The notes under the pieces: model-generated
The model's input: only the letters and a program-made list of their open reading frames with translations
What the model was told of the DNA's origin: nothing
Database searches by the model: none
Part shown: positions 9,822 through 53,648 of the stretch, piece after piece
Layout: the number at the start of each line of letters is the position of its first letter
Position numbering within the stretch: the stretch's first letter is position 1
Translations under genes and position numbers: made by a program
Virus genome (UHGV): UHGV-1455077
Direction: 5' to 3' (one strand)
DNA from: a virus
Length of the DNA: 64,000 bases

Positions 9822-9831
9822 CAAATTAAAT

Positions 9832-9865
9832 AAAGTGTGATATTGTAGTATCACACTTTATTTTT
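9832..9865 (+). terminator. Rho-independent terminator after thyX
   Basis: 11-bp perfect stem AAAGTGTGATA/TATCACACTTT, 6-nt loop, then TTTTT. Confidence 0.75.
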
Positions 9866-9877
9866 AGGAAAAAAATT

Positions 9878-11224: not shown

Positions 11225-12042
11225 TGGCTGATAGTAATATTGTTAATAGACAAGTTTATCAAGATATTCGTGATACTTTTAAACAAAGAGCAATGAATTG
11301 GAATGGTGTATGGAAGGTATGGACAAATCAATCTCCTGATTGGGGTGGTCGTTGGGTATATGGATGGAAAGGAGTAAGAATCCAAATGTATGATACTATT
11401 CCAGAATCTGTCCGTGATAAAATTCAAAAAGAATATACTGGATTATCGGGTGAAGTTAATCAAGTTATTAATGAAGAATCTTCAAAAATTCATACTTTAG
11501 GAAATGAAAATAATATTAGAAGGGCTGTAATTCAATTAAATAATACAACTGATGCAAATATTGGTGTATATATTGGAAGTGAAAAATTACCAAAAATTGA
11601 AGTTAAAACTATTGGTACTGCTGGTAATTTTAATCCAGATGTTAATATTGCTAATACTTCTGATGATTATACTGTTAATAAATACAATACTTCATATGTT
11701 AGAGATATTCCAGCCAATAAAATTGTTAATACAACAACAGGACAGGAAGTTCCTTTAAATGCTGTTATCACTAAGGATATTAATCAAAAAACTCAAATGG
11801 AAGGTTCAACAAATCCAACTGAATCATCTCAAGCAGAAGGTATTGTTAAAAAATCTGATTATGAATTAATAAGAAGTGTATTAGAAAGAATTAAAGATTG
11901 TTTGATTCAAAAGAATTCTTGGTTTACTTATAATGGGATTTGTAGCCGTAGTTGTCAAATTAATTGTCAAAATAGATGTCAAGTAAGTTGTCAAGGTTGT
12001 AATACAAAACAATGTCACGACCAAAATTGTGGGAGTGTTTAA
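11224..12042 (+). CDS. Trp-rich protein with a CxxxC-periodic Cys-rich C-terminal tail (candidate rSAM substrate)
   Basis: 272 aa; TAATG overlap with rSAM-1; last 32 aa CSRSCQINCQNRCQVSCQGCNTKQCHDQNCGSV. Confidence 0.6.
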   Translation: MADSNIVNRQVYQDIRDTFKQRAMNWNGVWKVWTNQSPDWGGRWVYGWKGVRIQMYDTIPESVRDKIQKEYTGLSGEVNQVINEESSKIHTLGNENNIRRAVIQLNNTTDANIGVYIGSEKLPKIEVKTIGTAGNFNPDVNIANTSDDYTVNKYNTSYVRDIPANKIVNTTTGQEVPLNAVITKDINQKTQMEGSTNPTESSQAEGIVKKSDYELIRSVLERIKDCLIQKNSWFTYNGICSRSCQINCQNRCQVSCQGCNTKQCHDQNCGSV

Positions 12043-12045
12043 TTT

Positions 12046-13242
12046 ATGGAATTATTTGAAAAAATTACACGTATTGCAGTTAAACTTTATTCAGGTTGCA
12101 ATATGAAATGTTGTTATTGCTTTCAACCATATAATGATAAAATTAAACCACGAATTTTTTCTGATTATGATAATTTATATAAATTTGTTAAATCTTTGCC
12201 GTTATCTGATATTGTAATTGTTACATTAGTTGGTGGAGAGGTAACATTAAGACCTGATTTAGTAAAACTTTGTATTAAAAAAGTATTTAAAAGAATTGAG
12301 AGAGAACAAGATGTAACTTTTCATTGTGCAACTATTTCCAATGGAACTAATTTAGATATTTTACTTGATTTATGTAATGAAAATTATTTTTATTCTAAAC
12401 ATTGCTGTATTTCTTGGGATGGTTTATTTTCATCAAGTTTATCAAGAAAGATAAATGGAAAATATGATGATGAATATTTTAAAAATATGATACTACAATT
12501 GGGTAAATCTGAATACAATGATAAAATTTCCATAGTTCACGCTTTAACACCTGAAACTTTACCATATTTGGCTGATAGTTTTAAGTTTTGTTTTGATAAT
12601 AATGTTTTAAGTTTGGGTTATTATTATATTCACGAAGCAAATTATAATAGTGATTATATATATAAAGAATTTGAAAAACAAATTAGAAAAATTTGTGATA
12701 TGTATATTCAAAATGATAAAATTAATTTTTATAATTGGGTTAATTATTTTCAACGAAGAAGAAATCCTGATAATTTTTTTACTTGTGTAAAATTAGGAAA
12801 TAATTATTTTATTAATCCAGAAGGAGAAATTTATCCTTGTATTTATTTAGGAGACCATAAAGCATATAACCTTGGTAATATTAAAGATGGAATTGATTTA
12901 AATAAACAAAATGAATTTGTTAAGGAATATTATCATTATCCATTATGCAAATATAAAACTTGTAAATGTTATCAATGTTCTGAATGTCCTGCGGCTAATT
13001 ATGTTAATAATGGAAGTTTACATAAAAGATTTGAAGGGGCGTGTGAATTATATAAAATTGAAAATAAAGTTTTTGAAGAATATTATGAAAAAATAAAAAA
13101 TAATATAATGTTTAATAATGAATATTTAAATGAAATGTTGCCAACTTATGATTTGAATAAATTTACTGAATGTGATTTTGAATTTCATTATTCAGAATCC
13201 AAATCTCCAAATTTGAATATTGTTCAACAATGGAATAAATGA
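12046..13242 (+). CDS. Radical SAM/SPASM enzyme (rSAM-2)
   Basis: CNMKCCYC cluster; GGEVTL; C-terminal CKYKTCKCYQCSECPAAN SPASM-like Cys cluster. Confidence 0.85.
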   Translation: MELFEKITRIAVKLYSGCNMKCCYCFQPYNDKIKPRIFSDYDNLYKFVKSLPLSDIVIVTLVGGEVTLRPDLVKLCIKKVFKRIEREQDVTFHCATISNGTNLDILLDLCNENYFYSKHCCISWDGLFSSSLSRKINGKYDDEYFKNMILQLGKSEYNDKISIVHALTPETLPYLADSFKFCFDNNVLSLGYYYIHEANYNSDYIYKEFEKQIRKICDMYIQNDKINFYNWVNYFQRRRNPDNFFTCVKLGNNYFINPEGEIYPCIYLGDHKAYNLGNIKDGIDLNKQNEFVKEYYHYPLCKYKTCKCYQCSECPAANYVNNGSLHKRFEGACELYKIENKVFEEYYEKIKNNIMFNNEYLNEMLPTYDLNKFTECDFEFHYSESKSPNLNIVQQWNK

Positions 13243-13243
13243 A

Positions 13244-14401
13244 ATGAAGAAAACAACTTTACCGCCAATGATAAATCATTGTTTTTTGATGTTATCTGAA
13301 CAATGTAATTTAAGATGTAAGTATTGTTATATTCAAGGGAGAGATAATCCATATACTATTGATATTTCGGTAATGGAAAAAATTAAAAAAATGTTTACTT
13401 GCTATAATAAGCCACGAATTATATTTTTTGGTGGAGAACCATTATTAAGAGTGAATTTAATTAAAGAAATTGTTAAAAAATATAAAGATGATTTTCAATA
13501 TCAAGTTGTTACAAATGGAACAGTAAATTTTAATGAATTTATGGATGAAGTATATCAACCATTTAATCATATTTTTGATGTTCAAATTTCGTGGGATGGT
13601 AATATTGATACTCGTAAATCTGTAACTAATAAGATTACAAATAATATTGTATATGATAATATTATTACTCAATTAAAAAAAGGGTATAGATTAGAAGGAA
13701 GATGTGTTTTAGATGAAACATCAGTAAAAAATTTTTTTGAAACTTACAAAATATTTAAAGATTTACATCATACATATAAATTTAGTGGAGATTTTACAAT
13801 AGCTCATCAGCCCCAATTTAAAGAATCATATTGGAATGATTTGGAAGTTCAATTAAATTTGATTTTTTCTGATATTAAAAATAATTTAGTTAATGATAAT
13901 AAAATTTATATTCCACGATTTTTATATAAAAACATTACTAATGTTATTGAAAATAAGCCAGTAATATCTTGTGATGTTGGAAATTATGTTGTTATCCGTC
14001 CAAATGGAGATATATATCCTTGTACTATTTTATCGCAAATAGATGAAAGATTTAAAATGGGGAATATCAATGATGAAATTGATACAGAAATTATAGACGA
14101 TTTAAAATATAAATCATCTTGTAAAAAAGAATGTGAATATAAATCTATATGTGATGGTGGTTGTCGTTATGAAAGAATAAAAAATTTTTCAAATAGTTGG
14201 AAAGAAAATATATGCCCATTTACTTGTGAAATTTATAAGGTTATTTATGAATGTACAAACAAATTTTTAAATTCATTAGATGCTGACCAACAGAATAAAT
14301 TGTATGAACTGATTACTCAATATAATTTATGGAGTATTGATTATTGTAATGGTAGTTCAAAATTAAATAAAGATGACGGAATGATAAAATTAAATGTATA
14401 A
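13244..14401 (+). CDS. Radical SAM/SPASM enzyme (rSAM-3)
   Basis: ATG at 13244, 1 nt after rSAM-2 stop (the ORF track starts at an upstream TTG); CNLRCKYC cluster; GGEPLL; C-terminal CKKECEYKSICDGGC. Confidence 0.85.
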   Translation: MKKTTLPPMINHCFLMLSEQCNLRCKYCYIQGRDNPYTIDISVMEKIKKMFTCYNKPRIIFFGGEPLLRVNLIKEIVKKYKDDFQYQVVTNGTVNFNEFMDEVYQPFNHIFDVQISWDGNIDTRKSVTNKITNNIVYDNIITQLKKGYRLEGRCVLDETSVKNFFETYKIFKDLHHTYKFSGDFTIAHQPQFKESYWNDLEVQLNLIFSDIKNNLVNDNKIYIPRFLYKNITNVIENKPVISCDVGNYVVIRPNGDIYPCTILSQIDERFKMGNINDEIDTEIIDDLKYKSSCKKECEYKSICDGGCRYERIKNFSNSWKENICPFTCEIYKVIYECTNKFLNSLDADQQNKLYELITQYNLWSIDYCNGSSKLNKDDGMIKLNV

Positions 14402-14428
14402 ATAATTTATATATTTTAAGGAAATAAA

Positions 14429-15571
14429 ATGATAATTTTTATGCCAGAACGTGTTTATGAATATTTTAAAAATGATGATTTTTTAAATGAAAAAATTAAA
14501 GAAATTAGTAATAAAGTTTATAATGAATCTCAACATTATGATTTAAAAAATTTTTTAAGTATTGATGAACATATTTTTGATGAAGTTAATCAATATATGT
14601 TGAATAATGTTTCAGATGAATTGCGTGATGAATTAAATATTTGCTTAAATGGTTATAATCAAAAAGCTAATTTATTTGCTAAGAATATTGAAAAATATGA
14701 TATTGAAACTCAAATATATTTAATGTATATGCTTAATGATGGAGATATGAGTCCGTCAGAAGATTTATTTAATAGATATAAACGAATTAATGAATTATAT
14801 GAACAAAATGATTTAAATTTTTCGGCTTTTATACATACCATTTATTATTTTACAAATTTATATTTACAATGGGTTGATAGTGATAATTTGAAAAAAATTA
14901 ATGAAAATGGATTTTTTTCATATCAAGAAGTGAAAAAAATGTTAAGCTATGAAGATACATTATTTTCTAAAATGAAAAATAAAGTAAATTCTGAACAATA
15001 TTTTAATATTTTATTTCATAAACGAATTCAAATGATGTATCTTTTTATGTTGTTTATTGGACAATTTAGTGAAAATTTTGATGATGTCGTTGAATTAATT
15101 ATTAGAAAAATTTATGATAATAGATTTAAATATGATAATTTTAATTATTTAAAATTGGCAATTAATCATATCTTTTTTCAAACATATTTTGATAAAGGAG
15201 ATTTTACTAAAGCTAAGAAATATTTAATGTATAATATATCTATGATTAATTATGGATTTGCTCATAAATTTGAAATGGTTAAAGCATTAAACCATTTTAA
15301 TAAGATTTTTAGTAAAGAATTTTGTAATTATTTGTTTTTCTTATATACAATGATTCGTGTTTATATTCCAAGTTTACAAAAAGAATTTAATATTTTAAAT
15401 AGTGAAAATGCCACGGAATTTGAAAAGAGATTGTTATTTGGTAAATTGCAAGATGATGAAAAAATGTTCGGTTTAGATTTAAATCCAAATGAATGGTTAT
15501 CTTTTAAATGGTGTCAACTTAATAAAAGTTCGTTTGATTATTTTAATAAAAATGTTGACAATTTATCTTAA
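14429..15571 (+). CDS. Hypothetical protein
   Basis: 380-aa ORF immediately downstream of the rSAM operon. Confidence 0.5.
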   Translation: MIIFMPERVYEYFKNDDFLNEKIKEISNKVYNESQHYDLKNFLSIDEHIFDEVNQYMLNNVSDELRDELNICLNGYNQKANLFAKNIEKYDIETQIYLMYMLNDGDMSPSEDLFNRYKRINELYEQNDLNFSAFIHTIYYFTNLYLQWVDSDNLKKINENGFFSYQEVKKMLSYEDTLFSKMKNKVNSEQYFNILFHKRIQMMYLFMLFIGQFSENFDDVVELIIRKIYDNRFKYDNFNYLKLAINHIFFQTYFDKGDFTKAKKYLMYNISMINYGFAHKFEMVKALNHFNKIFSKEFCNYLFFLYTMIRVYIPSLQKEFNILNSENATEFEKRLLFGKLQDDEKMFGLDLNPNEWLSFKWCQLNKSSFDYFNKNVDNLS

Positions 15572-15583
15572 ATAATTTATAAT
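15555..15583 (+). promoter_or_regulatory. Sigma70-type promoter TTGACA-N17-TATAAT upstream of the DNA ligase gene
   Basis: TTGACA at 15555-15560, 17-nt spacer, TATAAT at 15578-15583; ATG at 15616. Confidence 0.6.
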
Positions 15584-15615
15584 CTTCATAAAAAATAATT
15601 TATGGAGATTTTTTT

Positions 15616-17550
15616 ATGAAAACTTTAATTGATATTTTAAGAGTTTGTTCTGATTATTATACAAATACAGGCGATTACTATATTTTTGATGATGAAGATA
15701 AACTAATTTTACAAGAATATGGTATTGAAGCAGATATTTCAACAGATGATGTATATGATAGTTTATATGATATTGGAAAAAAGTTTTATCCTAATGATAT
15801 TTTCTTTTTGTCTATTGGTTCTGAAGTTAGAGGTGATAAAGTTAAATTGCCAATACCGCTTGGTTCAATGACAGAATGTAAAGAAGATGAACTATTAAAA
15901 TGGATTTCTCCGAATGAAAAATATATGGTATCAGCTAAATTAGATGGATGCTCTTGTTTATGTTGTTATGAAAATGGACAGTTAAAAATTGCTTATTCTC
16001 GTGGTGATGGAGAAAATGGGCAAGATATTACTCGCATTATTAACACTTTTGAAAATTCGATTACTTCTTTAAAAATTCCTGATAATGTTATGATACGTGG
16101 TGAAGTTATTGTTTCTAAAGAAAATATTCCATTGATGATTGATGAATTATATAAAGAAACTCATTATCGTTATAAAAATGGTCGTAATACTGTTGCTGGT
16201 CAATTAAACTCAAAAGTGTGTGCAAAAACATTTTCAAAATATGCCCATTTTGTAGCTTATAAAATTATGAATTTTAATGGTTCAGAAGAAGAAATGTTTC
16301 AAAAACTTGAAGAATATGGTTTAGAAACGGCACAACATTCAATGGTTGATGGTCAGTATGTAACCGAACAAAGTGCTAAATTAGGTGTTCAATCAGTTAG
16401 AGATGACTATGAATATGAATGTGATGGAATTATTTTTACTGTTAATCGTAAATCTGAAAATTATAATGGTTATGAAACAAGTACATATAATCCAAAGGAA
16501 TCTCGTAAATTTAAAGTTGGAGCAGTAGTTAATTCTGCTGAAACCGAAGTAGAATTTGTTGAGTGGAATGTTTCTAAAAATGCTTTGTTAAATCCACGCA
16601 TTAAAGTTAAACCAGTAGATATTAATGGTGTAACTATTGATTGGGTAACTGGACATAATTATAAAAATATTGTTGATAATAAAATCGGTCAAGGTGCAAA
16701 GATTGTAATTACTCGGCGTGGAGATGTTATACCATATGTTGAAAAAGTTATTTCTCCGTGTGAAGAAGATAAGTTAGGAATTCCAACAATTGACCGTTCA
16801 ATGTGGGATACAACAGAAAATGGTGTATTTGCATTTTATTATGAAGGAACTAATGATGAATTAGATAGAATTGTTTCTTTACAACGATTAGTATACTTTT
16901 GTAATAAATTAAATGTTAAATTTGCTGGAGAAGGTAATTTAACAAGAATTATGAATTTTACTGAATTAAATACAATGAGTCCTTATAATTTAATTAATTT
17001 GCCTGCATCAGTTTTTACACAAACTATTGGAATTAATGGAATTAAATTATATGCTTCTTTACACGAGTGTCTTAAAAAAGCAACAATTCAGCAATTAATG
17101 GATGCTGTTGGAGCATTTGGTGATGGTATTGGTGAACTTAAACTTAATAGAATTGTTGACACTTATGGTGAATTAATATATGATAGAGATAAAATTATGC
17201 AGGTTGATGGTTGGTCGGATATTTCAGCAGACCAATATTGTTCAAGATATGCAGTTTATTTGAATTGGTGTGAGAAATTTCGTTCATCTGGAATTGAATT
17301 AAAGTATGCAGAAGTTCAAATTCAATCTGAAAAATTTAAAAATATTATTGCTTGTTTTACTGGGATTAGAGATAAGGAAATGGAATATAATATTGTTTCG
17401 GGTGGCGGAAAAATTGTAACATCTGTAACAAAAATATGTAATTTGTTAATTACAAAAGAAAATAATAGCACTTCATCAAAAGCTGAAAAAGCAAGAGAAA
17501 AAGGTATTGAAATCATTTCTTATGATGAAGCTGTAAAAAGATTTAAATAA
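15616..17550 (+). CDS. ligA: NAD-dependent DNA ligase (LigA type, with HhH and BRCT)
   Basis: Adenylation motif KLDG and LigA motif SRGDGENGQDIT; C-terminal BRCT-like region; 644 aa. Confidence 0.8.
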   Translation: MKTLIDILRVCSDYYTNTGDYYIFDDEDKLILQEYGIEADISTDDVYDSLYDIGKKFYPNDIFFLSIGSEVRGDKVKLPIPLGSMTECKEDELLKWISPNEKYMVSAKLDGCSCLCCYENGQLKIAYSRGDGENGQDITRIINTFENSITSLKIPDNVMIRGEVIVSKENIPLMIDELYKETHYRYKNGRNTVAGQLNSKVCAKTFSKYAHFVAYKIMNFNGSEEEMFQKLEEYGLETAQHSMVDGQYVTEQSAKLGVQSVRDDYEYECDGIIFTVNRKSENYNGYETSTYNPKESRKFKVGAVVNSAETEVEFVEWNVSKNALLNPRIKVKPVDINGVTIDWVTGHNYKNIVDNKIGQGAKIVITRRGDVIPYVEKVISPCEEDKLGIPTIDRSMWDTTENGVFAFYYEGTNDELDRIVSLQRLVYFCNKLNVKFAGEGNLTRIMNFTELNTMSPYNLINLPASVFTQTIGINGIKLYASLHECLKKATIQQLMDAVGAFGDGIGELKLNRIVDTYGELIYDRDKIMQVDGWSDISADQYCSRYAVYLNWCEKFRSSGIELKYAEVQIQSEKFKNIIACFTGIRDKEMEYNIVSGGGKIVTSVTKICNLLITKENNSTSSKAEKAREKGIEIISYDEAVKRFK

Positions 17551-20576: not shown

Positions 20577-20638
20577 TTAAAATCCTTAATTTTTAATTAT
20601 AATAATATTTATTGAAAAGAGATTGAATGATGTAGTAG

Positions 20639-20668: not shown

Positions 20669-22150
20669 ATGGTTAAATTAACAATAATTTATAAAGATTA
20701 TATTCATTGTACTGTTCGTGGTTTATTACCTGATGATATAGCTAAATGTATTAAGGAATTTAAAGTTTTTATTCCTTCAGCACGTTTTCAACCATCTTAT
20801 AAATTGGGTCGTTGGGATGGTTACAAACAATATTTTACTATTACAGGTCAAACTTATGTTAATTTATTGCCACGTATGTTTGAAATTATAAATGTTTCTC
20901 AATATGAAGTTGAAATAATACGTCCTGAAAATGTTATTGAAGACCCAGATTTAGGTGAAGATATTGATAATACTTATTTTTCTTATTTAAAATGGTATAA
21001 AGGTCATTATAAGGAAGATGAACCTATTATGTTGGAAGACCATCAAGTTAGAGTTGTTAATACTTGCTTAAAAAATCACAGATGTATTATTGATGCCGCT
21101 ACTGGTTCAGGAAAAACTTTAATATCAGCAGTTTTAGCAAAAAAGGTACTCCCTTTTGGAAAAACAATACTTATTGTTCCTTCTAAAGATTTGGCTTTTC
21201 AGTCAGCTAATGAATTTAAGCAATGGGGTTTAGATGCTGGTATTGTTGGTTGTAATTTAAGAGAATTTGGACACGATGTAACTGTTTGTACTTGGCAAAC
21301 AATTAATTCAATGGAGCGTTCAAAAACTGAAAAACCATTATCAGTTGAGGAATTAAGTAAATTAAAAGATGGGGTTGTATCTTTAATTTTTGATGAATGT
21401 CATCAATGTAAATCTTATCATATTCAACAAGTTTGTGATTCAACATTTAAAGATGTTCCAATTAAATGGGGATTAACAGGTACTGTACCTAAAGAAAAAT
21501 CAGATTATTATTGCTTATATACTTCATTGGGTGGTGTTGGAGCAGTTGTTGAAGCTAAAGAATTGCAAGATAAAGGATTTTTAGCTAATTGTAATATAAA
21601 TTGTATTCGTTTAGAAGATAATACTTTATGTCAAGATTTTACATCTGAAATTGAATATTTAGAAAGTAACGATGAAAGAATATCTTTTATCACACAACTT
21701 TTACATTCGATTGTACAAACATCTGGTAATACATTGGTTTTATTAAGTCATAAAAAGTTTGGTAAAAATTTAACTGAAAAATTAATTAAGTTAGGAACAA
21801 ATGCCATATTTTTAAATGGCGATGTAAAATCAACTAAACGTTTTGAAGAATATGAAAAAATTAAGACAGAAAATAATAAATGTATTGTTGCAATTGATAA
21901 AATTGCATCAACTGGATTAAGTATTTCAAGATTGTTTAATTTAGTTTTTATTGATTATGGTAAAGCATTTACAAAAACTATTCAATCAGTTGGTCGTGGA
22001 TTACGATTGGCAAAGGATAAAGATTTTGTTGAAATTTATGATATATCATCAACAACTAAATATTCAAAAAAACATTTTAATGATAGAATACATTACTATG
22101 ATGAAAAAAAATATCCATTTAGAATACTTAATATTGACAAATGGAGATAA
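20669..22150 (+). CDS. uvsW: UvsW-like SF2 DNA helicase
   Basis: ATG at 20669 with GAGGA RBS (track starts at TTG 20657); N-terminal GRWDGYKQYF resembles T4 UvsW GNWDGRIRLL; Walker A AATGSGKT; DECH box. Confidence 0.8.
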   Translation: MVKLTIIYKDYIHCTVRGLLPDDIAKCIKEFKVFIPSARFQPSYKLGRWDGYKQYFTITGQTYVNLLPRMFEIINVSQYEVEIIRPENVIEDPDLGEDIDNTYFSYLKWYKGHYKEDEPIMLEDHQVRVVNTCLKNHRCIIDAATGSGKTLISAVLAKKVLPFGKTILIVPSKDLAFQSANEFKQWGLDAGIVGCNLREFGHDVTVCTWQTINSMERSKTEKPLSVEELSKLKDGVVSLIFDECHQCKSYHIQQVCDSTFKDVPIKWGLTGTVPKEKSDYYCLYTSLGGVGAVVEAKELQDKGFLANCNINCIRLEDNTLCQDFTSEIEYLESNDERISFITQLLHSIVQTSGNTLVLLSHKKFGKNLTEKLIKLGTNAIFLNGDVKSTKRFEEYEKIKTENNKCIVAIDKIASTGLSISRLFNLVFIDYGKAFTKTIQSVGRGLRLAKDKDFVEIYDISSTTKYSKKHFNDRIHYYDEKKYPFRILNIDKWR

Positions 22151-23323: not shown

Positions 23324-23875
23324 ATGGATATTATTGATACTCGTAGAACTTTTGATGAAGATTATGCTAAAATGCGTTATACTTTGTATATTCAAAAAGT
23401 TAATACTTTATTAGAAAATCATCAAAAACCTCATAACAAAAAATATAAGCAAGGTTTTTTCATTCCAAAAAGACCTCTTAAAGTTATGAATATTATGGAA
23501 ACTACTGAACCACAACCAATTGTATGGAGAAGTAGTTGGGAAAAAGATTTATGTGAATGGTTAGATACAACCGATGCAATTGTTCGTTGGGGTTCAGAAA
23601 TTGTTCAAATTTTATATCGTGACCCAACAAAAAATAAAATGTCTTTTTATACTCCTGATTTTTATGTTGAATATTTGGATGCTAATAAAGTTCTTAGAAA
23701 AACAATGATTGAAGTTAAACCATTAAAAGAAGCTACACTTAAAAAAGCATCAAATGGTTGGGATAAAATTTTAGTTGCAAAAAATGCAATGAAATGGGTT
23801 GCCGCTAATGAATATTGTAAAAAACGAGGAATTACATTTAAAGTTATGCACGAACATAATTTAGGAATTTTATAA
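23324..23875 (+). CDS. PD-(D/E)xK nuclease-fold protein
   Basis: YTPDFYVEY...IEVKP (D...E-V-K) core; 183 aa. Confidence 0.45.
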   Translation: MDIIDTRRTFDEDYAKMRYTLYIQKVNTLLENHQKPHNKKYKQGFFIPKRPLKVMNIMETTEPQPIVWRSSWEKDLCEWLDTTDAIVRWGSEIVQILYRDPTKNKMSFYTPDFYVEYLDANKVLRKTMIEVKPLKEATLKKASNGWDKILVAKNAMKWVAANEYCKKRGITFKVMHEHNLGIL

Positions 23876-25360
23876 TTTTAAATTCATATAGTATTGATAT
23901 GCTCTTTTTATTAATTTTTCTTTATTAGGTTTTGTTAATTTATCATAATTACCACGATATTGTCTAATAAAATCTTCATAAAAATCTGTAAATGACTTCC
24001 AATCTGAAAGATTAAAAAATTCTTTTTTTATCCATTCATCAAATAAAAATGCAGTTTCTTGATAATAGGCATTTTGTTCAACAGGGTCATTCCAATAATT
24101 TGTTGCCGCTTCATCTGAATCAAATTTTTGTTCAGTTGATTTGTATGTTTGTGTACGTCTTAAACTATCAATTAAATGAATACATTCGTGAATTAATGAT
24201 GGAATAACAGTTTCTTTGGAATTTTGAATATATTTAAGGATTTCCTTTCTCATATATTTTGTAAATATATTTTTTGCAAGTTCGGTAGTATCATTTGTGG
24301 TATCTTTTAATTTAATATACTCATTTAAATGTTTTTTCATTATCTTTGAAAACAAATCATTAATAGACATTGTTAAAGCAGGAAATGTGATAACTTTAAA
24401 TTTTCCGTCAATACTTTTACCAAAAGATGGATTTGGTTCAACATTCATATCACAAAAACGAAGTAAGTATTCATATGGTGAATTTTTAATAATTAGTGAA
24501 GTCTTTTTAAATGCCGAAGTCATATTGATAAATGCAGAATCCGTATTAAATAACATTTCATCATTTTTAATAGCTTTAATACAAAGTTTAGCTAATTTGT
24601 TTGCTAATATTCTATATTGTGAATCTTGCTGAATATCTTCATTTAATACAGATTCTTCTAATGATAAATTTTTATCATAATTTTTTGTAATATAATCACG
24701 AAGTTTTTGGATAAAACCATTACTTCTTAATTTTTTAAAAATAAGATTTTCTTCAGATAATTCTCCCGATGTTGTTAATCCTTCTTTTCTCATTGAATAT
24801 AAATTATCTAATAAATCATTGGCTTCTTCAGTATTATATTCAGATGATAAAATATTATCAATTTGTAAAACTAAGTCTTTATATTTTGGTGAATCTTTTA
24901 CATCTTCTACTTCTTTTGTAATTTGTTCAGGTTTTTTAATCCATTTATCAAATTTTAAAGAATATTTTCCGCCTGATTCAGCAGGTTTTGAAGCATCCTC
25001 TACATATAATTCAACGGGATGACCATAAATTGTAATATCGTGGTTTGCATTAAAAATTGTTTTTTTAGCATTAAAGTAATCTTGTAATAATTCTATGTTA
25101 ATATCATAATCACTAAATTTAACAATAATATGCAAATCAATATCAGAATCTTTATTAAAATTGAAGTTAGCCATTGAGCCTGTAAATTGAATATCAGCAA
25201 TATCAAGTGATAAATCTAAATATTGAATAAAAGCATCTGCAATTTGCATAAGTTTATTATATACTTGAGGTTTTAATTCATCTTTTTCCCAAATGTCAGT
25301 ATTTAATGTATCACTAAATTTTATTGTATCTTCTTTTAAATTTAAATCTTCAAGTTTCAT
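23870..25360 (-). CDS. Nucleotidyltransferase-fold protein (Pol-beta-like minimal NTase domain plus a large C-terminal domain)
   Basis: GSMANFNFNKDSDIDLHII = GS-x9-13-DxD NTase motif; 496 aa. Confidence 0.5.
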   Translation of the reverse strand: MKLEDLNLKEDTIKFSDTLNTDIWEKDELKPQVYNKLMQIADAFIQYLDLSLDIADIQFTGSMANFNFNKDSDIDLHIIVKFSDYDINIELLQDYFNAKKTIFNANHDITIYGHPVELYVEDASKPAESGGKYSLKFDKWIKKPEQITKEVEDVKDSPKYKDLVLQIDNILSSEYNTEEANDLLDNLYSMRKEGLTTSGELSEENLIFKKLRSNGFIQKLRDYITKNYDKNLSLEESVLNEDIQQDSQYRILANKLAKLCIKAIKNDEMLFNTDSAFINMTSAFKKTSLIIKNSPYEYLLRFCDMNVEPNPSFGKSIDGKFKVITFPALTMSINDLFSKIMKKHLNEYIKLKDTTNDTTELAKNIFTKYMRKEILKYIQNSKETVIPSLIHECIHLIDSLRRTQTYKSTEQKFDSDEAATNYWNDPVEQNAYYQETAFLFDEWIKKEFFNLSDWKSFTDFYEDFIRQYRGNYDKLTKPNKEKLIKRAYQYYMNLKL

Positions 25361-25459
25361 AAAAAATCCAATATAAATAATGTTATAATAATATTTATTG
25401 AAGGTATAATAAATTATTTAATAACTTACATTCAATAAGAAAATAGAATAAATAAACAT

Positions 25460-26443
25460 ATGAATGAATATAAAATTTATAAATTAATATTCCCAAATGG
25501 AAAAGTATATATTGGACAAACTAAGCAAGAAATTCAAAAAAGATGGGGATTTCAAGGAAAAGGTTATAAGAATTGCCCTAAAGTATATAATGCTATTTTA
25601 AAATATGGGTGGGAAAATGTTAAAAAAGAAATTTTATACGATAAATTAAATCATAATGATGCAAATATGTTAGAGATTAAATTAATAACAGAAGTATATA
25701 ATAGTAATAACAATAATTTTGGATATAATATTGAAAATGGTGGAAATACAATAGGAACACATTCGGAAGAAACAAAAAGGAAAATTGGTGAAGGTAATAA
25801 AGGTAAAATTGTATCATTAGAAACCAGAGAAAAAATAAGACAAAAAAATAAAAATAAACACTATAGTATACAAACAGAAATTTCAACTGGGCAACATTTA
25901 AGTTTTTTAACAGAATTTAAAAAAGGGGATATTCCGTGGAATAAAAATAAAAAATGCCCTCAAATTTCACAAAGGCTATATGGAAGAAAACTTTCAGAAG
26001 AAACAAAGATAAAAATTGGAGAAGCAAATTCTGGAAGAAAAATGTCCAATGAATTAAAATTAAAATTAAAATATATTAATACTGGAAGAAAACTTTCAGA
26101 AGAAACAAAAAGAAAAATTGGTGAAGGTAATAAAGGTAAAATTGTATCATTAGAAACCAGAGAAAAAATAAGACAAGCTAAATTAGGAAAGAAAGCAAGT
26201 AATGAAGCAAAAGAAAAATTAAAAAATATTTGTAAAATGTCAAATATGAAAAGAAATCAGCATTTAATATTTTTTAATGAAAAGATGTATAATTTAAAAG
26301 AATTATCAGAACTATTAAATGTTAAATATGCAACATTAAGAATGTATATCAGTAAATACTCAAAAATTTTAGGTGAACAAGAAGCAATAAATAAAATGAT
26401 TAAATACTATGGGGAAAAATATGACAAGTCCAGCGAAAAATAA
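25460..26443 (+). CDS. GIY-YIG homing endonuclease with duplicated NUMOD3-like DNA-binding modules
   Basis: YKIYKLIFPNGKVYIGQT (GIY...YIG) near N-terminus; repeated SEETKRKIGEGNKGKIVSLETREKIRQ modules. Confidence 0.8.
   Translation: MNEYKIYKLIFPNGKVYIGQTKQEIQKRWGFQGKGYKNCPKVYNAILKYGWENVKKEILYDKLNHNDANMLEIKLITEVYNSNNNNFGYNIENGGNTIGTHSEETKRKIGEGNKGKIVSLETREKIRQKNKNKHYSIQTEISTGQHLSFLTEFKKGDIPWNKNKKCPQISQRLYGRKLSEETKIKIGEANSGRKMSNELKLKLKYINTGRKLSEETKRKIGEGNKGKIVSLETREKIRQAKLGKKASNEAKEKLKNICKMSNMKRNQHLIFFNEKMYNLKELSELLNVKYATLRMYISKYSKILGEQEAINKMIKYYGEKYDKSSEK
25766..25843 (+). repeat. 78-bp direct repeat, copy A (copy B at 26099-26176, 1 mismatch)
   Basis: In-frame duplication 333 bp apart inside the GIY-YIG gene. 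Confidence 0.85.
26099..26176 (+). repeat. 78-bp direct repeat, copy B
   Basis: Identical to 25766-25843 except one base. Confidence 0.85.
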
Positions 26444-26942
26444 AGGTAATTCATTTGAACGAGAAGTTGCCAAATTTTTAACTACTATTTTTAATGAGCA
26501 TTTTAATAGAAATATTAGCGGTAGTGGTTCATATATTGGTGGTAATAATATTTATAGAAAGCAGATATTATCAGATTCGCAGGTTTGGAATAATCAAGGA
26601 GATATAATTTGTCCTGATTCATTTAATGGTAAACTTATAATAGAATGTAAATTTTATAAAGATTTTCCTTTTCATCATTTTTTAATTAATAAATCAATCC
26701 CTTTATTAGATGATTGGATAAAACAACAACTTACTATTGTAGAGGATAATAATATTTGGTTTATTGTATTTAAAATAAATCGTGTTGGAAGTTACATAGT
26801 TATTCCTGAAAAAATAATAGATATTGATGATTCATTGGGAAATCATTCAATATATTATAATAATGGAAATAGATATATCATAGCAGAATTTGAATCTTTT
26901 ATTAAATTATATAAAAATCAGATTAAAGAAAAATGCCTTTAA
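26409..26942 (+). CDS. PD-(D/E)xK nuclease-like protein
   Basis: FEREVAKFL...GDIICPD...LIIECKFYK; overlaps the 3' end of the GIY-YIG gene by 35 nt. Confidence 0.4.
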   Translation: MGKNMTSPAKNKGNSFEREVAKFLTTIFNEHFNRNISGSGSYIGGNNIYRKQILSDSQVWNNQGDIICPDSFNGKLIIECKFYKDFPFHHFLINKSIPLLDDWIKQQLTIVEDNNIWFIVFKINRVGSYIVIPEKIIDIDDSLGNHSIYYNNGNRYIIAEFESFIKLYKNQIKEKCL

Positions 26943-28728
26943 TATTATTTCCATAATATCCATTTAATATTGCTTGTACGCCTTCTTTGGAAATTGATTG
27001 ACCGTCATAGTTTGATATTTTTTGTTTAATGCTTTCATCTGTTCCTGTAACTTTTGTATCATTAAAACGTGATAATAAATGACGACATAAGTTAATAAAT
27101 TTTGGTTTATTTTTATAAAAATTAAAATAAAAATATTCAGTTTTTTGTCCTTGTTTAAAGCATTTTAACATAAATTCATATGATGCTGGGTCACAACTGA
27201 ATAATATAGCATCAGATGACATAATATATTTAATATCTTCTTGTATTTCTGTTAATTTATTTTCTGTTAGAACATTCTTTTTTAATAAGAAGTATTCAAT
27301 AACAATTTTATTATTAAACATATCAATAGTATCTTGTTCCATATGTATTTTAGGAAAATAAGTTTTTAATATTGAATTATTATCTAATTTTTTTGCTTGT
27401 TCTATAAACCATTTTTTGTCATCATCAGTATAACCATCATTTTTTTTAAAATTATAATCTTGAAAATATACATTTCCATTATATGCAAATAAATGTTTGG
27501 TATTTCTAACATCATATTCTTCTTCAACTTGATGATGAAGTAATGGAGTATCGGCTGACCATATAGCAATTCCTGTATTTGATAATAAAATACGATACCA
27601 TTTATTTCTTTTTACTAAATCATTAAATTCTTTTTTTGTGGGATTTAATAATACTTCAATATCATCAATATAATCATAATCTTCCATAATGTTACTTGAA
27701 TTATCAACCATTCTTTGAGGTAATTGGTCTTTTGTATTTAATCCAACTCCTCTTATATCATATTTTTTAAATTGAATATTTTTAAATAATGGAACTTGTT
27801 GCATTTTTTTAAGTTCATCTGGAGCATTATAATAAGATGGAGCTAATTCATTATTTCTAAAAATAACATATTGATTATCATCTAATTTTCCAATAAAAGC
27901 ATATTTATATCCATCAGAACGAGAAAAGGATTTATAATCAGTTTCATCAATTACTTTAAACATTGCACAATTTTTATCCAGATATTCATAAATTTCTTTA
28001 TCAACAATTGGATATGACAAATGCTCTTTTCCATATAATTTCATTTTTTCAATTAAATCTGCGTGAATAACATTATATGCATCGCCAAAAATATAAATTT
28101 TATGTTTTAAATCATATATTCCACGAACAGGGTTTTTGGTTAATAATGTTGAAATCATTTGTTTAGCTTCAGATTCAGAAGATGTATAATAAAGAATAGG
28201 ATTTTCTGAATAATCTTTAACAAAAGATTCATATATGTTATTACTATTGGGATTCCAATCACCATTATTATCAATTGATTTAATTTGATTTGGCTCAAAT
28301 ACAATTATTTCACTTACAAAATCCATACCATTTTCAGGAAATCCAACAATAATACCATCATAATCTTTTAATAATTCTTTATTTCTAAAATAAACAGCTT
28401 TTTCTAATTCTTCTGGCATATCTCTATTAAACCAAAGAGGATTTTCCATTTTTAAATAAACAGATTTTAATTTAGAACCATAAGATTTTCCAACACTATA
28501 ATTAGGAGTAAAATAAATTCCAGCACCAAAATGACCATTTATTGATTTATTAAAAGAATTAAATTTGTTATTTGTTCCGTGATAGCAAATTAATGGATTG
28601 CCATTTTCATCTACGATTTTAGAATTGCCAAACCATTTCCAAAAATTATCATTTAAATTATTATTTAAATCATTTTTAGATTCTTTAACAAGTTCTTTAA
28701 TTAAATTATTATATTTGCCACGATACAT
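26923..28728 (-). CDS. Large protein with an N-terminal PARP-like (H-Y-E) ADP-ribosyltransferase domain
   Basis: CYHGTNNKFNSF...GAGIYFTPNYSVGKSY parallels PARP WHGSRTTNFAGI...GKGIYFADMVSKSANY; C-terminal region homologous to ORF 51068-53182. Confidence 0.6.
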   Translation of the reverse strand: MYRGKYNNLIKELVKESKNDLNNNLNDNFWKWFGNSKIVDENGNPLICYHGTNNKFNSFNKSINGHFGAGIYFTPNYSVGKSYGSKLKSVYLKMENPLWFNRDMPEELEKAVYFRNKELLKDYDGIIVGFPENGMDFVSEIIVFEPNQIKSIDNNGDWNPNSNNIYESFVKDYSENPILYYTSSESEAKQMISTLLTKNPVRGIYDLKHKIYIFGDAYNVIHADLIEKMKLYGKEHLSYPIVDKEIYEYLDKNCAMFKVIDETDYKSFSRSDGYKYAFIGKLDDNQYVIFRNNELAPSYYNAPDELKKMQQVPLFKNIQFKKYDIRGVGLNTKDQLPQRMVDNSSNIMEDYDYIDDIEVLLNPTKKEFNDLVKRNKWYRILLSNTGIAIWSADTPLLHHQVEEEYDVRNTKHLFAYNGNVYFQDYNFKKNDGYTDDDKKWFIEQAKKLDNNSILKTYFPKIHMEQDTIDMFNNKIVIEYFLLKKNVLTENKLTEIQEDIKYIMSSDAILFSCDPASYEFMLKCFKQGQKTEYFYFNFYKNKPKFINLCRHLLSRFNDTKVTGTDESIKQKISNYDGQSISKEGVQAILNGYYGNNIKGIFL

Positions 28729-28737
28729 TCATAATCC

Positions 28738-29307
28738 TTAATAACATAACATAATTTTTTCAACATTTCCTAAGACTGATAAAGACATTCTTCTATCATA
28801 TGCTTGAGTATAATTTGGTGTCCAATTTTCATAATATGCTGGGTCATATTGTGGATTTAAATTTGATGTTGGGTAAGGTGCGTGTGTATATGTTGCATCA
28901 TCAACTTTTGAACTCATAATATATGTTTTAGATTTTATATCAAATGGTGCAAATGGAGAACGAACCAATGGCAGATAACTTCTATCTAATTTTGCTCTTA
29001 ACCAAACATATGAACCATTAATATTATAATAATCAGCTTGTCTTTTAACAAGTATTGGATTATAATTAGAATATTCAATGTATGGAGTTTCATTAGTTAA
29101 AGGAATAATAAACCAATCCAAATCTTCTTTAGGTTCATTTTTTAATGAACCTTCTAACCAAATTCTACCAGTAAAATTTGTTGTATGAATGACGATAGTA
29201 TTACTTCTTTTATTGGTTTTATGTAAATTGTATGCAACTGCTTTAACAGCTTTACCAACAAAATCTGTTTTACCACTCATATTATCTAATAAAACTTGTG
29301 TTTGCAT
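28738..29307 (-). CDS. Hypothetical protein
   Basis: 189 aa; ATG overlaps the stop of the upstream gene (TAATG). Confidence 0.45.
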   Translation of the reverse strand: MQTQVLLDNMSGKTDFVGKAVKAVAYNLHKTNKRSNTIVIHTTNFTGRIWLEGSLKNEPKEDLDWFIIPLTNETPYIEYSNYNPILVKRQADYYNINGSYVWLRAKLDRSYLPLVRSPFAPFDIKSKTYIMSSKVDDATYTHAPYPTSNLNPQYDPAYYENWTPNYTQAYDRRMSLSVLGNVEKIMLCY

Positions 29308-31019
29308 TATAATATTACTCCTGAAATTCTTAAAACTTCTTCAATTTCATCATTTTCTTCATCATCATCTTCTTCAATAAATTTATTATATTCTGGTATT
29401 GACATAAAAATATCTAAAATGTCACCTGCATCTTCTTTTGACCATTCTGTTCCATATTGAGAAAAATCAATATTATTGATTGAAATATCTCCTTCTTCTT
29501 CATCAATGTAAAGATTTAAATCATCATAAACTTCATTTAATGATTTTTGACCATTATTTGTATATTCACGATAAAATTGTTCGACACTATGGCAATCATA
29601 TAATGTATATATGAAGTTATATTCATAATCAGTATATTTGGAACGTGATGGTGGTGTCCAGCCGAACTTACGTAATTGGTCATAAACATATTCATCAATA
29701 ACTTGATTAAATGTAGATTTTGAAATTTTTTTATAAATTAATTCTTCCCATTTATTATCTTTAGATGAAAACCATTTTTCAAGATTTTTATCATTATATT
29801 TTGAATCATTTGTATTAAATAAAGTATTTAAAAATTTTTCAAAATCAATATCATCAGATGATAAACTATTTTCTTTAAGATAAAATTTATATAATGTTTT
29901 TAATTGTGTATCTTCCCAATTTACATCTTCAACAAAACTTATATCTTGAATAGCTTTTTTGTAAAATTTAGAAACGTTATAACCACTCGGATAATCTAAA
30001 TAACCATTCATTGCCATTTCTTTATAATCATTAATATCAGTTAAATAGTTGTGTCTTAATAGTGTTGAATAAGAAATCTGTAAAGCAATTTCTCCAACAT
30101 CTGTACGTGTTAAATCATATTCATATGCAATATCATTTTCTCTGTCTTCATCCCATTCATCGTCTTCTGAAGGGTCTTCAAGATTTTTATATGAATTAGT
30201 TACATCTTCTTGGGTTAAAAAGAAATCTAATAATTCTGGATTTTCGTGTACAAATTCTCTAAATTTAACAGAATCATTATTGGCATCTCTAAATTCACGG
30301 TCTCTGCCTTGATATTCATCAGGGACAAATAATTGCAATTTTTCTTTTTGATTATCTTTATTAATAATAACATATAAAGTTCCATCAGCAGTATAATTAT
30401 CATAATATAAACAATTATCACCGCCAGTACACCAAGATGCTCCTCGTCTTAATGCTTTAGAACCTTCATAAGTATGAGGTGTCCAAACTTCCCAATTATC
30501 TCCATTAAATAATAACTCAACAGCACCGTCCATATACATACCAGGTTTTTTTTCACCTTGTAATTCTTTTTGGTTTCTTTTAGCATCTTTATTTTTTTGA
30601 TTAACAGTTAGATTGTCTTTGGCAGTTGATAATGCATTTTTTAATTCATCAATTGTTTTATAACTGTTAATATCATTGCTAGGTAATAAATTTTTTCTAT
30701 TTTTTGCTTGGGTAAATGCTTTAAGATATTGTTGCATTTTTTCTGGAGATATATTTTTTAATTCTCCAATTTTATTCATTTTTAATAACCAACGACTATA
30801 ATTTTCAGGTGTTGAAGCTAAGACATCATTAGATAAATTTTGGATATTTCCTAAAACAGGGTCAAATGAAATTAAATATTTAAATTCTTCATCAGATAAA
30901 TTTGAAGCATTTTTTTGACGGACATCTAAAAGGGATTCATTTAATATTGAACTAAAATGAATATTATTAATATTAACTTTTTTTCCTAAATGTATTTTAT
31001 TAAAATATGAAAGTTTCAT
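29307..31019 (-). CDS. Hypothetical protein, paralogue family A; C-terminus ends in the shared linker motif EEVLRISGVIL
   Basis: 570 aa; SWCTGG...LYVIINK...DANNDS similar to ORF 4315-6117. Confidence 0.5.
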   Translation of the reverse strand: MKLSYFNKIHLGKKVNINNIHFSSILNESLLDVRQKNASNLSDEEFKYLISFDPVLGNIQNLSNDVLASTPENYSRWLLKMNKIGELKNISPEKMQQYLKAFTQAKNRKNLLPSNDINSYKTIDELKNALSTAKDNLTVNQKNKDAKRNQKELQGEKKPGMYMDGAVELLFNGDNWEVWTPHTYEGSKALRRGASWCTGGDNCLYYDNYTADGTLYVIINKDNQKEKLQLFVPDEYQGRDREFRDANNDSVKFREFVHENPELLDFFLTQEDVTNSYKNLEDPSEDDEWDEDRENDIAYEYDLTRTDVGEIALQISYSTLLRHNYLTDINDYKEMAMNGYLDYPSGYNVSKFYKKAIQDISFVEDVNWEDTQLKTLYKFYLKENSLSSDDIDFEKFLNTLFNTNDSKYNDKNLEKWFSSKDNKWEELIYKKISKSTFNQVIDEYVYDQLRKFGWTPPSRSKYTDYEYNFIYTLYDCHSVEQFYREYTNNGQKSLNEVYDDLNLYIDEEEGDISINNIDFSQYGTEWSKEDAGDILDIFMSIPEYNKFIEEDDDEENDEIEEVLRISGVIL

Positions 31020-31408
31020 TAATTTTCTCCTAATGGATAAACACCAGTTGATGGATTATTAAATTTTTCTAAAGTTATATCTAAATTCCAACTTTCAGGC
31101 AATCCATCTAAATAACTAACTGTACAATCAAACACCCACCCTTTTTCCATATCAATTGGGTTAATATCCAATAAAGTAAAACGAGGTTCTTCTTGAAAGG
31201 TTTCAATTAGTTCATCTTGAATATCATTTCTTACTTGTATTGTTTTTGGTTGAAATAAACGATTACGAATTGTTGTACCAAAATTTGGATTCCAATCGCA
31301 TTCACCTTTGGTTGTATAAATTCTAATTAATAAATCGTGTTTAGCTAATTCTTTATCAATCAAAATTTCCCATTCATCATTTATTGTTGTATAACCTGTA
31401 ATTGTCAT
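31019..31408 (-). CDS. gp25: Baseplate wedge protein, T4 gp25-like (GPW/gp25 family)
   Basis: TKGECDWNPNFGTTIRNRLFQ matches T4 gp25 RKGSRPFDPEFGCDLSDQLFE; 129 aa. Confidence 0.7.
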   Translation of the reverse strand: MTITGYTTINDEWEILIDKELAKHDLLIRIYTTKGECDWNPNFGTTIRNRLFQPKTIQVRNDIQDELIETFQEEPRFTLLDINPIDMEKGWVFDCTVSYLDGLPESWNLDITLEKFNNPSTGVYPLGEN

Positions 31409-31436
31409 AAAAAATCCTTATATAAAGATATTTATT
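31409..31436 (-). promoter_or_regulatory. Late-promoter-like box AATAAATA plus AAGGA leader upstream of the gp25-like gene
   Basis: Minus strand reads CAATAAATATCTTTATATAAGGATTTTTTATG. Confidence 0.45.
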
Positions 31437-31489
31437 GACAAACTTATTGTTTAATGGTAATGTTTTTCATATTAAAATAGAGGTAAAAT

Positions 31490-38885: not shown

Positions 38886-38989
38886 ATTTAAATTTATTCT
38901 GGGTTTATTATTAATATGTTCATTTATGATGTTTTGTATATATAAATCAATTAATGATGACAAATGGAGACCTTAAGTAAAATAAATCC

Positions 38990-39018
38990 TTGACATTTAT
39001 TTGTTTAACGATTATATT
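38990..39018 (+). promoter_or_regulatory. Sigma70-type promoter TTGACA-N17-TATATT
   Basis: Followed by AAGAGG RBS and ATG 39043. Confidence 0.55.
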
Positions 39019-39042
39019 AAAATAATAAAAAGAGGTTAAAAA

Positions 39043-45593: not shown

Positions 45594-45611
45594 AAAATCC
45601 CTTGACAAATA

Positions 45612-45647
45612 AAATCCTTATGTTAAATTATGAACATAAGGATTTTT
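45612..45647 (+). terminator. Rho-independent terminator whose 3' arm contains the AAGGA Shine-Dalgarno of the next gene
   Basis: 13-bp stem AAATCCTTATGTT/AACATAAGGATTT then TT; ATG 45653 lies 10 nt after AAGGA. Confidence 0.6.
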
Positions 45648-45652
45648 AATTT

Positions 45653-49820: not shown

Positions 49821-49828
49821 AATAAATA
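49821..49828 (+). promoter_or_regulatory. Late-promoter-like box AATAAATA
   Basis: 27 nt upstream of ATG 49856, with TATATTAAAGATAAGGAACAATA leader. Confidence 0.4.
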
Positions 49829-49855
49829 CTTTTATATTAAAGATAAGGAACAATA

Positions 49856-50365: not shown

Positions 50366-50374
50366 GGATAGTAA

Positions 50375-53572: not shown

Positions 53573-53585
53573 TTGATTTTTCCTA

Positions 53586-53613: not shown

Positions 53614-53648
53614 AACCTTATCAAAAACAACAATGAAAGGTTAATAAA

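Follow-up and report, generated by a model that had tools for sequence, protein, structure and literature searches.

A candidate head-packaged polyvalent ADP-ribosyltransferase assembled from exchangeable modules in an uncultured T4-related jumbo phage

Introduction

Does a phage gene that encodes an ADP-ribosyltransferase (ART) domain and shares an operon with a baseplate gene specify an enzyme made early in infection, a part of the virion structure, or an effector that is carried in the head and injected with the DNA? The question is raised by an open reading frame (ORF) in a 64,000-nucleotide (nt) stretch of the virus genome UHGV-1455077 (the whole stretch is called the window below), the source of which is an uncultured, approximately 289-kb, T4-related jumbo myovirus. 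The ORF, located in the ORF list at 26923..28728 on the minus strand, exactly where the initial annotation of this DNA had placed it, starts with ATG and encodes 601 amino acids (aa) plus stop, with the intact chain amounting to 71 kDa. Our preferred reading, to which we assign a probability of roughly one half, is that the gene encodes a late-made, head-packaged and injected polyvalent ART effector, which is possibly cut into separate domains.

Parts of this picture have precedents. Among the enzymes of phage polyvalent proteins that modify macromolecules, ART-PolyVal domains are described as the most frequent (PMC5512222, PMC9503650), and "injected effector" is the published prediction for the family (PMC5512222). 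Nor is the domain call new: the UniRef entry A0A8S5T0Z5 (Myoviridae sp. ctWb16), which is approximately 100% identical to the protein, already carries the name "PolyVal ADP-Ribosyltransferase", and the family was defined computationally in 2017. Beyond the published description are the partner modules, denoted B, C and D, the cassette variation at a single locus with breakpoints at module junctions, and a leader combined with a prohead-protease-like motif.

Results

The ART domain

Module borders were derived from BLAST and iterated hidden Markov model (HMM) searches, which divide the protein into a leader (residues 1-16) and modules A (17-167), B (168-349), C (350-489) and D (490-601). Module A and its candidate catalytic residues are located as follows.

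28228..28680, minus strand: module A, residues 17-167, an ART-PolyVal domain with an NNGxW...NIYE tail
28579..28581, minus strand: codon of H50 (YHGT), the predicted NAD-binding histidine, in strand 1 (47-52 in the model)
28513..28515, minus strand: codon of Y72, in the GIYF motif of strand 2 (71-74 in the model)
28357..28359, minus strand: codon of D124 (YDGII), directly before the fifth strand (125-132 in the model)
28309..28311, minus strand: codon of E140 (SEIIVFEPNQI), in the sixth strand; motif-level counterpart of PARP1 E988 (NEYIVYDIAQV)

Residues 40-156 match positions 1-137 of the 140 positions of the Pfam model PF18760 (ART-PolyVal) with an E value of 2e-20; the score, 74.4 bits, is well above the gathering cut-off of 31.2. 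An AlphaFold2 (AF2) model of the domain alone reached a predicted local distance difference test score (pLDDT) of 80.4; the domain was modelled separately, since the full-length model, built from whole-protein rows, gave the ART a pLDDT below 50. The N-terminal domain displays the ADP-ribosyltransferase fold that characterizes ART-PolyVal, and the Pfam match together with the AF2 model supports its assignment to the H-Y-[E/D/Q] (PARP/diphtheria-toxin-like) superclade of ARTs. The initial annotation had recognized an ART here from a stretch resembling the PARP catalytic core, CYHGTNNKFNSFNKSINGHFGAGIYFTPNYSVGKSY (residues 48-83), and both the ART call and this motif stretch are borne out by the model and by a profile match far beyond chance. 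By contrast, a direct Pfam match to PARP was not obtained at E<=1. The names given along with the identification of the N-terminal domain were AcrF11 (anti-CRISPR), RES toxin ParT, diphtheria toxin, exotoxin A, Tpt1, Arr and DarT.

Conservation was counted in 2 sets of homologues, one of 47 sequences (41 for the E140 column) and one of 25 diverse sequences. H50 is invariant in both (47/47 and 25/25). At the position of Y72, tyrosine is found in 35/47 and 14/25 sequences (an aromatic residue in 45/47), and the adjacent F73 is invariant, as is Q148-I149-K150 among the ART homologues. The family-wide acid is D124 (44/47 and 25/25), whereas the E140 column contains glutamate in 20/41 and 10/25 sequences. 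The published active site of ART-PolyVal consists of a histidine in strand 1, a tyrosine in strand 2 and an aspartate in strand 5, which places the family in the Tox-ART-HYD2 clade, related to PARPs, Gig2 and the cholix/diphtheria toxins (PMC5512222). The positions of D124, just before strand 5, and E140, in strand 6, in our model agree with this description. As judged from the alignments, the conserved set of candidate catalytic residues is H50-Y72-D124, corresponding to the published H-Y-D, with a PARP-like E140 in addition. The label "PARP-like H-Y-E" proposed initially is only partly right, because the family-defining acid is an aspartate: the histidine, the tyrosine and the PARP-like E140 are all present, and the conservation expected of the catalytic positions holds for H50 and D124 but not for E140. 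The motifs around E140 and PARP1 E988 are paired weakly by hhalign (probability only 3%).

In structural comparison, the ART model matches chain B of the Protein Data Bank (PDB) entry 9K3A best; among enzymes, protein-modifying PARPs score highest. Searching the PDB by sequence yielded a marginal match to ZAP/PARP13 (E 1.2) and otherwise chance matches.

Operon and late-promoter-like motif

The ART gene is the last of a group of minus-strand genes preceded by a promoter-like motif.

28738..29307, minus strand: upstream 189-aa gene, phrog_14467 "virion structural protein" (E 1e-11)
29307..31019, minus strand: 570-aa gene, weak tblastn match to a "structural protein" of Pseudomonas phage PA5oct (E 2e-8)
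31019..31408, minus strand: gp25-like baseplate wedge gene, the first gene of the operon, phrog_261 (E 1.5e-10)
31428..31436, minus strand: late-promoter-like motif AATAAATAT (within TGTCAATAAATATC), 28 nt 5' of the gp25 start
2949-2957 (minus), 3501-3509 (plus), 20605-20613 (minus), 25391-25399 (minus), 31428-31436 (minus), 49821-49829 (plus) and 54040-54048 (plus): the 7 positioned (C)AATAAATAY sites

The gene is translationally coupled in the operon gp25/570 aa/189 aa/ART, with a ribosome-binding site, AAGGA, 7 nt upstream and a gap of 9 nt to the stop codon of the preceding gene. A minus-strand block shared with a gp25-like gene had been noted in the initial annotation; the block stands, but the 2 genes are not adjacent, being separated by the 570-aa and 189-aa genes. 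The Pfam match of the gp25-like protein to GPW_gp25 (E 3.8e-5, 23.8 bits) lies below the cut-off of 27.2. The 189-aa protein also has tblastn matches to the "virion structural protein" of Klebsiella phages RaK2 and K64-1.

Of the 16 copies of the core AATAAATAY that the window contains, 7 are correctly oriented and located 28-39 nt 5' of start codons (binomial P 5e-7). Among the genes preceded by such a positioned site are the gp13 neck gene, gp25, the virion-protein gene at 49856, the operon at 54076 and all 4 minus-strand units. The motif (CAATAAATAT) resembles the T4 late promoter, TATAAATA; exact copies of this octamer are under-represented in the window and are not positioned 5' of genes. 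We consider AATAAATAY a candidate late promoter. A scan of the gene block for sigma-70 promoters and terminators was uninformative. Elsewhere in the window, plus-strand replication genes are, by eye, often preceded by TTGACA-N17-TAxxxT; several plus-strand genes have this element upstream, for example at 31409-31489, 38886-39042, 45594-45851 and 53573-53648.

ARTs of the Alt family show a conserved association with baseplate genes, which reflects late synthesis and head packaging (PMC5512222). Of the 2 possibilities raised initially for the present gene, an injected effector and an early gene, the former is favoured by the operon shared with virion-protein homologues and by the late-promoter-like motif.

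Leader and junction motif

The leader and the module junctions share a short motif, [I/L/V]-x-E, which at every junction of the protein is followed by a small or polar residue. L001 and L002 below are phage relatives sharing the locus.

28681..28728, minus strand: N-terminal leader, residues 1-16, MYRGKYNNLIKELVKE, with 2 [I/V]-K-E motifs (residues 10-12 and 14-16); its end reads I10-K-E and V14-K-E, then S
28228..28236, minus strand: A/B junction, I165-Y166-E167, then S168; L001/L002 breakpoint at window position 28230
27682..27690, minus strand: B/C junction, I347-M348-E349, then D350; L001 breakpoint near window position 27714
27262..27270, minus strand: C/D junction, L487-T488-E489, then N490

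The leader, MYRGKY(N/S)NLIKE, is present in all same-locus variants regardless of the module that follows, and a diverged form is found in the distant relatives P0067, P0072, P0117, P0125, P0126 and P0134, examples being MFLGKYKNVIKEVLNES and MLLGKYKNIIKEILNES. The leader was not found elsewhere in the window. Counted over non-redundant homologues, the motif [ILVM]-x-E is present at 34 of 38 ART ends, at all 23 starts of module B (expectation from composition, 3.0), at all 23 starts of module C (expectation 5.3) and at all 11 starts of module D, there as [IL]-x-E-N (expectation 1.6). The middle residue of the motif and the residues upstream of it are variable. Depletion of [IL]-x-E inside the modules was considered as an argument and dropped, the motif being depleted in module C only.

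In T4, the prohead protease gp21 cleaves after L/I-x-E; the internal proteins carry a 10-residue N-terminal prohead-targeting sequence that ends in a gp21 site, and Alt has a 7-residue N-terminal propeptide that is removed by gp21, its C-terminus being processed too; in T4, processing is blocked when the residue at the cleavage position is D (PMC9026906). By analogy, we infer that the leader may be a counterpart of the T4 capsid-targeting sequence. Relative L007, which has the same locus and the same type of leader, encodes, approximately 10 kb away, a PF03420 Peptidase_S77 (gp21 family) next to a T4-type portal. The 2017 paper proposes that polyvalent proteins are processed by in-cis metallopeptidase domains and makes no mention of prohead-protease sites (PMC5512222).

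Modules B, C and D

Together, the modules that follow the ART domain make up three quarters of the protein.

27682..28227, minus strand: module B, residues 168-349, uncharacterized
27262..27681, minus strand: module C, residues 350-489, uncharacterized
26926..27261, minus strand: module D, residues 490-601, uncharacterized, mostly helical and usually the C-terminal module

None of the 3 modules has a match in Pfam, PHROGs or NCBIfam. Over their first approximately 65 residues, modules B and C are homologous (hhalign probability 93.7%, E 2e-7), with a common pattern of a strand, NPT/YYTxS, a helix, R, [YF]x[WF]xxA and H. In an alignment of chimeric rows, N362, P363, R379, H398 and P459 of module C are near-invariant. 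In the full-length model, modules B and C are mostly confidently folded, with the means of 10-residue blocks mostly at 60-90 and a few of them lower; for residues ~361-470 of module C, pLDDT is mostly 74-89 with a single dip to 58. Module D is of low confidence (pLDDT ~30-66 by block). Charge and isoelectric point of the modules were uninformative.

An exhaustive HMMER search with residues 160-601 against 1.84 billion cluster representatives retrieved only 37 clusters, and a repeat of the homologue search with the same residues added nothing further. A Pfam scan of 8 of these clusters (652-1606 aa) detected one to several ART-PolyVal domains in each of the 8. As far as similarity searches can tell, modules B, C and D occur only in such ART-PolyVal-type proteins, and we regard them as further effector domains or as packaging domains. 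The relatives reach 1606 aa and carry up to 6 copies of the ART together with B/C/D modules. With its 4 modules, the shuffled architectures of its homologues and its phage context, the protein qualifies as polyvalent.

A cassette locus with recombination at module borders

The order of the locus, compared in relatives L001, L002, L006 and L007, is conserved: gp25 is followed by an optional gene of approximately 570-700 aa, the 189-aa gene and the polyvalent gene, and a PDDEXK nuclease gene in convergent orientation comes last. In all 4 relatives, the 189-aa gene is directly upstream of the polyvalent gene. The polyvalent proteins themselves differ in architecture.

P0054, same locus: B-C-D, without ART
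P0058: B-ART-C-D
P0064: ART-ART-C-D
P0066: ART-C-x-D
P0052: A-B-C-x-D
P0072 and P0067: 926 and 960 aa, with other modules

Nucleotide comparison of the window with L002 revealed approximately 81% DNA identity in the flanking genes and 98.99% identity from 28230 (codon 167, the A/B junction) through B-C-D and the PDDEXK gene into a homing endonuclease gene. In the comparison with L001, module B alone (28230-27714) is 97.3% identical, whereas the remainder is 77-84% identical. As identity jumps at module borders, the recombination breakpoints coincide with the module junctions, and the comparisons show, at the level of aligned DNA, that related phages exchange modules by recombination at the linker codons. 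L001 lacks the homing endonuclease, which points to co-conversion during homing as a driver of the exchange; we consider such a homing-associated process plausible. The high-identity tract shared with L002 corresponds to window positions 26145-28230, and the gene that it enters encodes a GIY-YIG/NUMOD3 homing endonuclease (25460-26443). In L001, the UvsW-like helicase (13650-16166) is an 838-aa protein with Hint/LAGLIDADG intein Pfam matches; the copy in the window (20669-22150) has 493 aa and no intein.

Paralogues and other genes of the window

Besides the ART gene, 3 ART-like genes are present, bringing the number of ART-like domains in the window to at least 4.

51068-53182, plus strand: 704-aa paralogue, downstream of 2 "virion structural protein" homologues (49856-51064)
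54778-56175, plus strand: 465-aa ART-like gene, the product of which starts directly with an ART-PolyVal domain (MKIIAYHGS...)
56175-56957, plus strand: 260-aa ART-like gene, abutting the 465-aa gene (LFHGT...GVSTSRN...EQEEVIVG; weak Pfam PARP match, E 0.003)

The domain at the N-terminus of the 704-aa protein (MKLYRGY...IWTTDD...) is a diverged relative of ART-PolyVal (hhalign 92%, E 5.7e-7), with R, W and N where H, Y and D are expected; it is followed by 2 uncharacterized modules and then by a copy of module B (residues 523-688, E 3.4e-53). All 4 junctions of this protein (128, 322, 525 and 693) carry LNES or INES. The 465-aa protein is matched by our local HMM with E 4e-15 and by Pfam with 31.0 bits against the cut-off of 31.2.

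A recurrent peptide, E-[IE]-x-E-[VI]-L-[KR]-[LI]-[SA]-G-[VI], is encoded at window positions 29310-29350, 56175-56240, 52000-52040 and 55230-55275. The 570-aa protein has it at the C-terminus (EEVLRISGVIL) and the 260-aa protein at the N-terminus (EINEILKLSGIDILNE); in the 704-aa and 465-aa proteins, as in homologues P0073 and P0144, it is found at internal junctions. The peptide may act in docking or as a linker.

The window has a G+C content of approximately 25%, and its content is clearly phage DNA, with the following genes recognized.

Nucleotide metabolism: NrdD, NrdG, radical S-adenosylmethionine (SAM) enzymes and ThyX
DNA and RNA handling: NAD-dependent ligase, UvsW-like helicase, gp46/gp47-like SbcCD, RNA ligase, DNA methyltransferases and homing endonucleases
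Virion: T4 gp13-like neck protein and several "virion structural protein" homologues

A plus-strand cluster (9147-15571) contains ThyX, 3 radical-SAM proteins (448, 398 and 385 aa, the 398-aa protein according to Pfam in relative L004) and other genes, and may specify a nucleotide or DNA-modification pathway. A 496-aa protein (23870-25360, minus strand), with the late-like motif upstream of its gene, has an N-terminal signature of a Pol-beta-type nucleotidyltransferase (NTP_transf_2 E 3e-4; phrog_36119 E 5e-47); Pol-beta nucleotidyltransferases are another enzyme class reported in polyvalent proteins. A 758-aa ClpB/Lon-like protein with 2 AAA+ domains (57994-60270, plus strand; "ATP-dependent protease" phrog_4871, E 4e-193) is encoded just upstream of virion-protein homologues and is an unusual phage cargo.

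The exact 601-aa sequence is present on more than 70 metagenomic contigs of up to approximately 290 kb, and the phage itself is found on hundreds of metagenome contigs, that is, it is widely sampled; a close relative was not found among 50,697 GenBank phage records. The assembly names ZEEV15 and CLOO16, from reading the names only, are presumably those of human-gut metagenome cohorts, which they resemble.

Discussion

Proposed mechanism and its alternatives

If the gene does encode an injected polyvalent ART effector, the operon gp25/570 aa/189 aa/ART would be transcribed late, together with the virion genes, and the 16-residue leader would target the protein to the prohead, like the capsid-targeting sequence of T4 and the propeptide of Alt. 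A prohead protease of the gp21 family would then cut after [I/L/V]-x-E at the leader and at the module junctions, yielding separate domains of approximately 13-21 kDa, and the freed domains would be ejected with the DNA. Within the first minutes of infection, the ART would mono-ADP-ribosylate a macromolecule of the host, for which a protein that takes part in transcription, translation or defence is the likeliest candidate. Exchange of cassettes would allow fast evolution of the injected repertoire. In a more specific form, which we put forward tentatively and with the odds rather against it, the protein would be a head-packaged effector polyprotein, consisting of the leader and interchangeable ART/B/C/D cassettes bounded by gp21-type sites, from which the protease frees separate effectors; the same linker codons would be recombination points for swaps between co-infecting phages, with the homing endonuclease possibly helping.

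Several points weigh against the injected-effector reading. Reports of experimental activity, target or packaging were not found for any ART-PolyVal member in the literature searched. The catalytic acid has 2 candidates, D124 and E140, and the late timing is read from the promoter-like motif only. A prohead protease gene was found neither in the window nor within 10 kb of either end, the one seen being that of relative L007. Furthermore, the proteome is rich in K, N, I and E, [IL]-x-E is short, and inside modules A, B and D it occurs at the background expected from composition, so that cleavage cannot be predicted from the motif by itself. Proteins that end with the ART tail keep its NIY (...NIYS stop, no E), suggesting that part of the linker conservation is structural, and the conserved linkers could serve recombination instead of proteolysis. 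Finally, the paralogues at 51068 and 54778 lack the leader.

The last of these points would fit an active ART-PolyVal enzyme that is not packaged at all, the junction motifs being uncut linkers for recombination or folding. Packaging is deduced from context alone, the paralogous ART proteins of the window manage without a leader, [IL]-x-E is at background frequency within modules, and the breakpoints at the junctions show that the linkers serve recombination. We nevertheless consider an unpackaged enzyme unlikely, as the gene is coupled to virion-protein homologues behind a late-like motif with synteny kept across diverged phages, the leader is conserved independently of its cargo, and a domain of an ejection protein located inside the capsid is the nearest match in structure.

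A different question is what the enzyme would modify. Instead of a host protein, the ART might act on DNA or RNA in the manner of DarT or Tpt1, hydrolyse NAD+ or neutralize a defence complex in the manner of AcrIF11, its role being counter-defence and not the take-over of transcription. The glutamate to which ADP-ribosyl transfer is linked in PARPs corresponds to E140, a residue that the family does not conserve, and a hypervariable cassette locus is expected of arms-race genes. The best-scoring enzymes are, however, protein-modifying PARPs, and the published assignment is with protein-modifying H-Y-[ED] ARTs (PMC5512222), which makes a non-protein substrate or a counter-defence role improbable in our view. 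Least of all do we expect the protein to be mainly a structural or scaffolding component of the virion, in which a catalytically dead ART domain would be retained for binding. It is true that no enzymatic signature is seen in modules B, C and D, which amount to three quarters of its length, that the same-locus relative P0054 has no ART and that one paralogue carries R, W and N at the H, Y and D positions, but H50, Y72 and D124 are intact here, the invariance of H and D in 25 diverse homologues indicates selection on catalysis, and the gene content of the locus is too variable for an essential structural part.

Implications

This locus is a compact, testable case, with a domain of 150 residues in which the candidate catalytic residues are clear, natural variants that have or lack the ART, and specific predicted cut sites. 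If the junction motif is a true prohead-protease site, it would explain how polyvalent proteins that lack a peptidase become separate effectors and would also show how cassettes are exchanged. If the polyprotein version holds, a widely sampled jumbo phage would have a new way to build and diversify its injected arsenal, and B, C and D would represent new domains serving as effectors or in packaging. The phage's injected enzymes may matter for phage-host dynamics in the apparently human-gut samples.

Comparison with known systems

The protein is closest to the ART-PolyVal family (PF18760), with an HMM match that clears the threshold well, the histidine of strand 1, the tyrosine of strand 2 and the conserved aspartate, and with the multidomain phage proteins, the several ART copies per protein in relatives and the predicted virion delivery that go with the family. 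It differs in that modules B, C and D match no Pfam domain of polyvalent proteins (no LPD, MPTase or helicase), in that a prohead-protease-like motif at the junctions takes the place of an in-cis peptidase, and in that the gene is part of a baseplate-gene operon of a T4-related jumbo phage. PARPs (PF00644; PARP1, PARP4 and tankyrases) share the motifs HG[ST], GxG[IF]YF and E-[YI]-I-V-[FY] and a similar fold; identity is 13-20%, there is no Pfam PARP match and no helical regulatory domain here, and, unlike in PARPs, the glutamate is not family-conserved, whereas an upstream aspartate (YDG) is invariant.

With T4 Alt, the protein has in common an ART encoded beside baseplate genes and a short N-terminal peptide ending in L/I-x-E (PMC9026906), and the logic of late synthesis, head packaging and injection would, by analogy, be the same. 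However, Alt belongs to the R-S-E (Alt/VIP2) clade, whereas the protein described here is of the H-Y-D/E type without sequence similarity to Alt: the R-S-E triad is absent, with H and not R in the first strand, no STS motif, and a match to PF18760 instead. Furthermore, Alt is a single-domain cargo, whereas this protein is a string of cassettes. The T4 internal proteins IPI-IPIII likewise have a short conserved leader ending in I-x-E in front of a variable, fast-evolving cargo, although the leader found here has no sequence similarity to MKTYQEFIAE and its targeting role is putative.

The best structural match, PDB 9K3A chain B, is a large multidomain protein as well, a 1071-residue "Tail protein" of the pre-ejectosome of cyanophage A4, which, unlike the present phage, is a podovirus and whose protein has no detectable sequence similarity to ours. 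The cyanophage A4 protein has been seen by cryo-electron microscopy inside the capsid and is ejected; the domains described for it are a lytic transglycosylase, an M23 peptidase and an alpha+beta domain left unassigned, with no mention of an ART (PMC12002296). Chain B is probably gp28, given that the paper numbers gp28 residues up to 1058 (PMC12002296), and we infer that the region matching our ART model is the unassigned alpha+beta domain. That domain of gp28 may be an unrecognized ART in an experimentally shown ejection protein.

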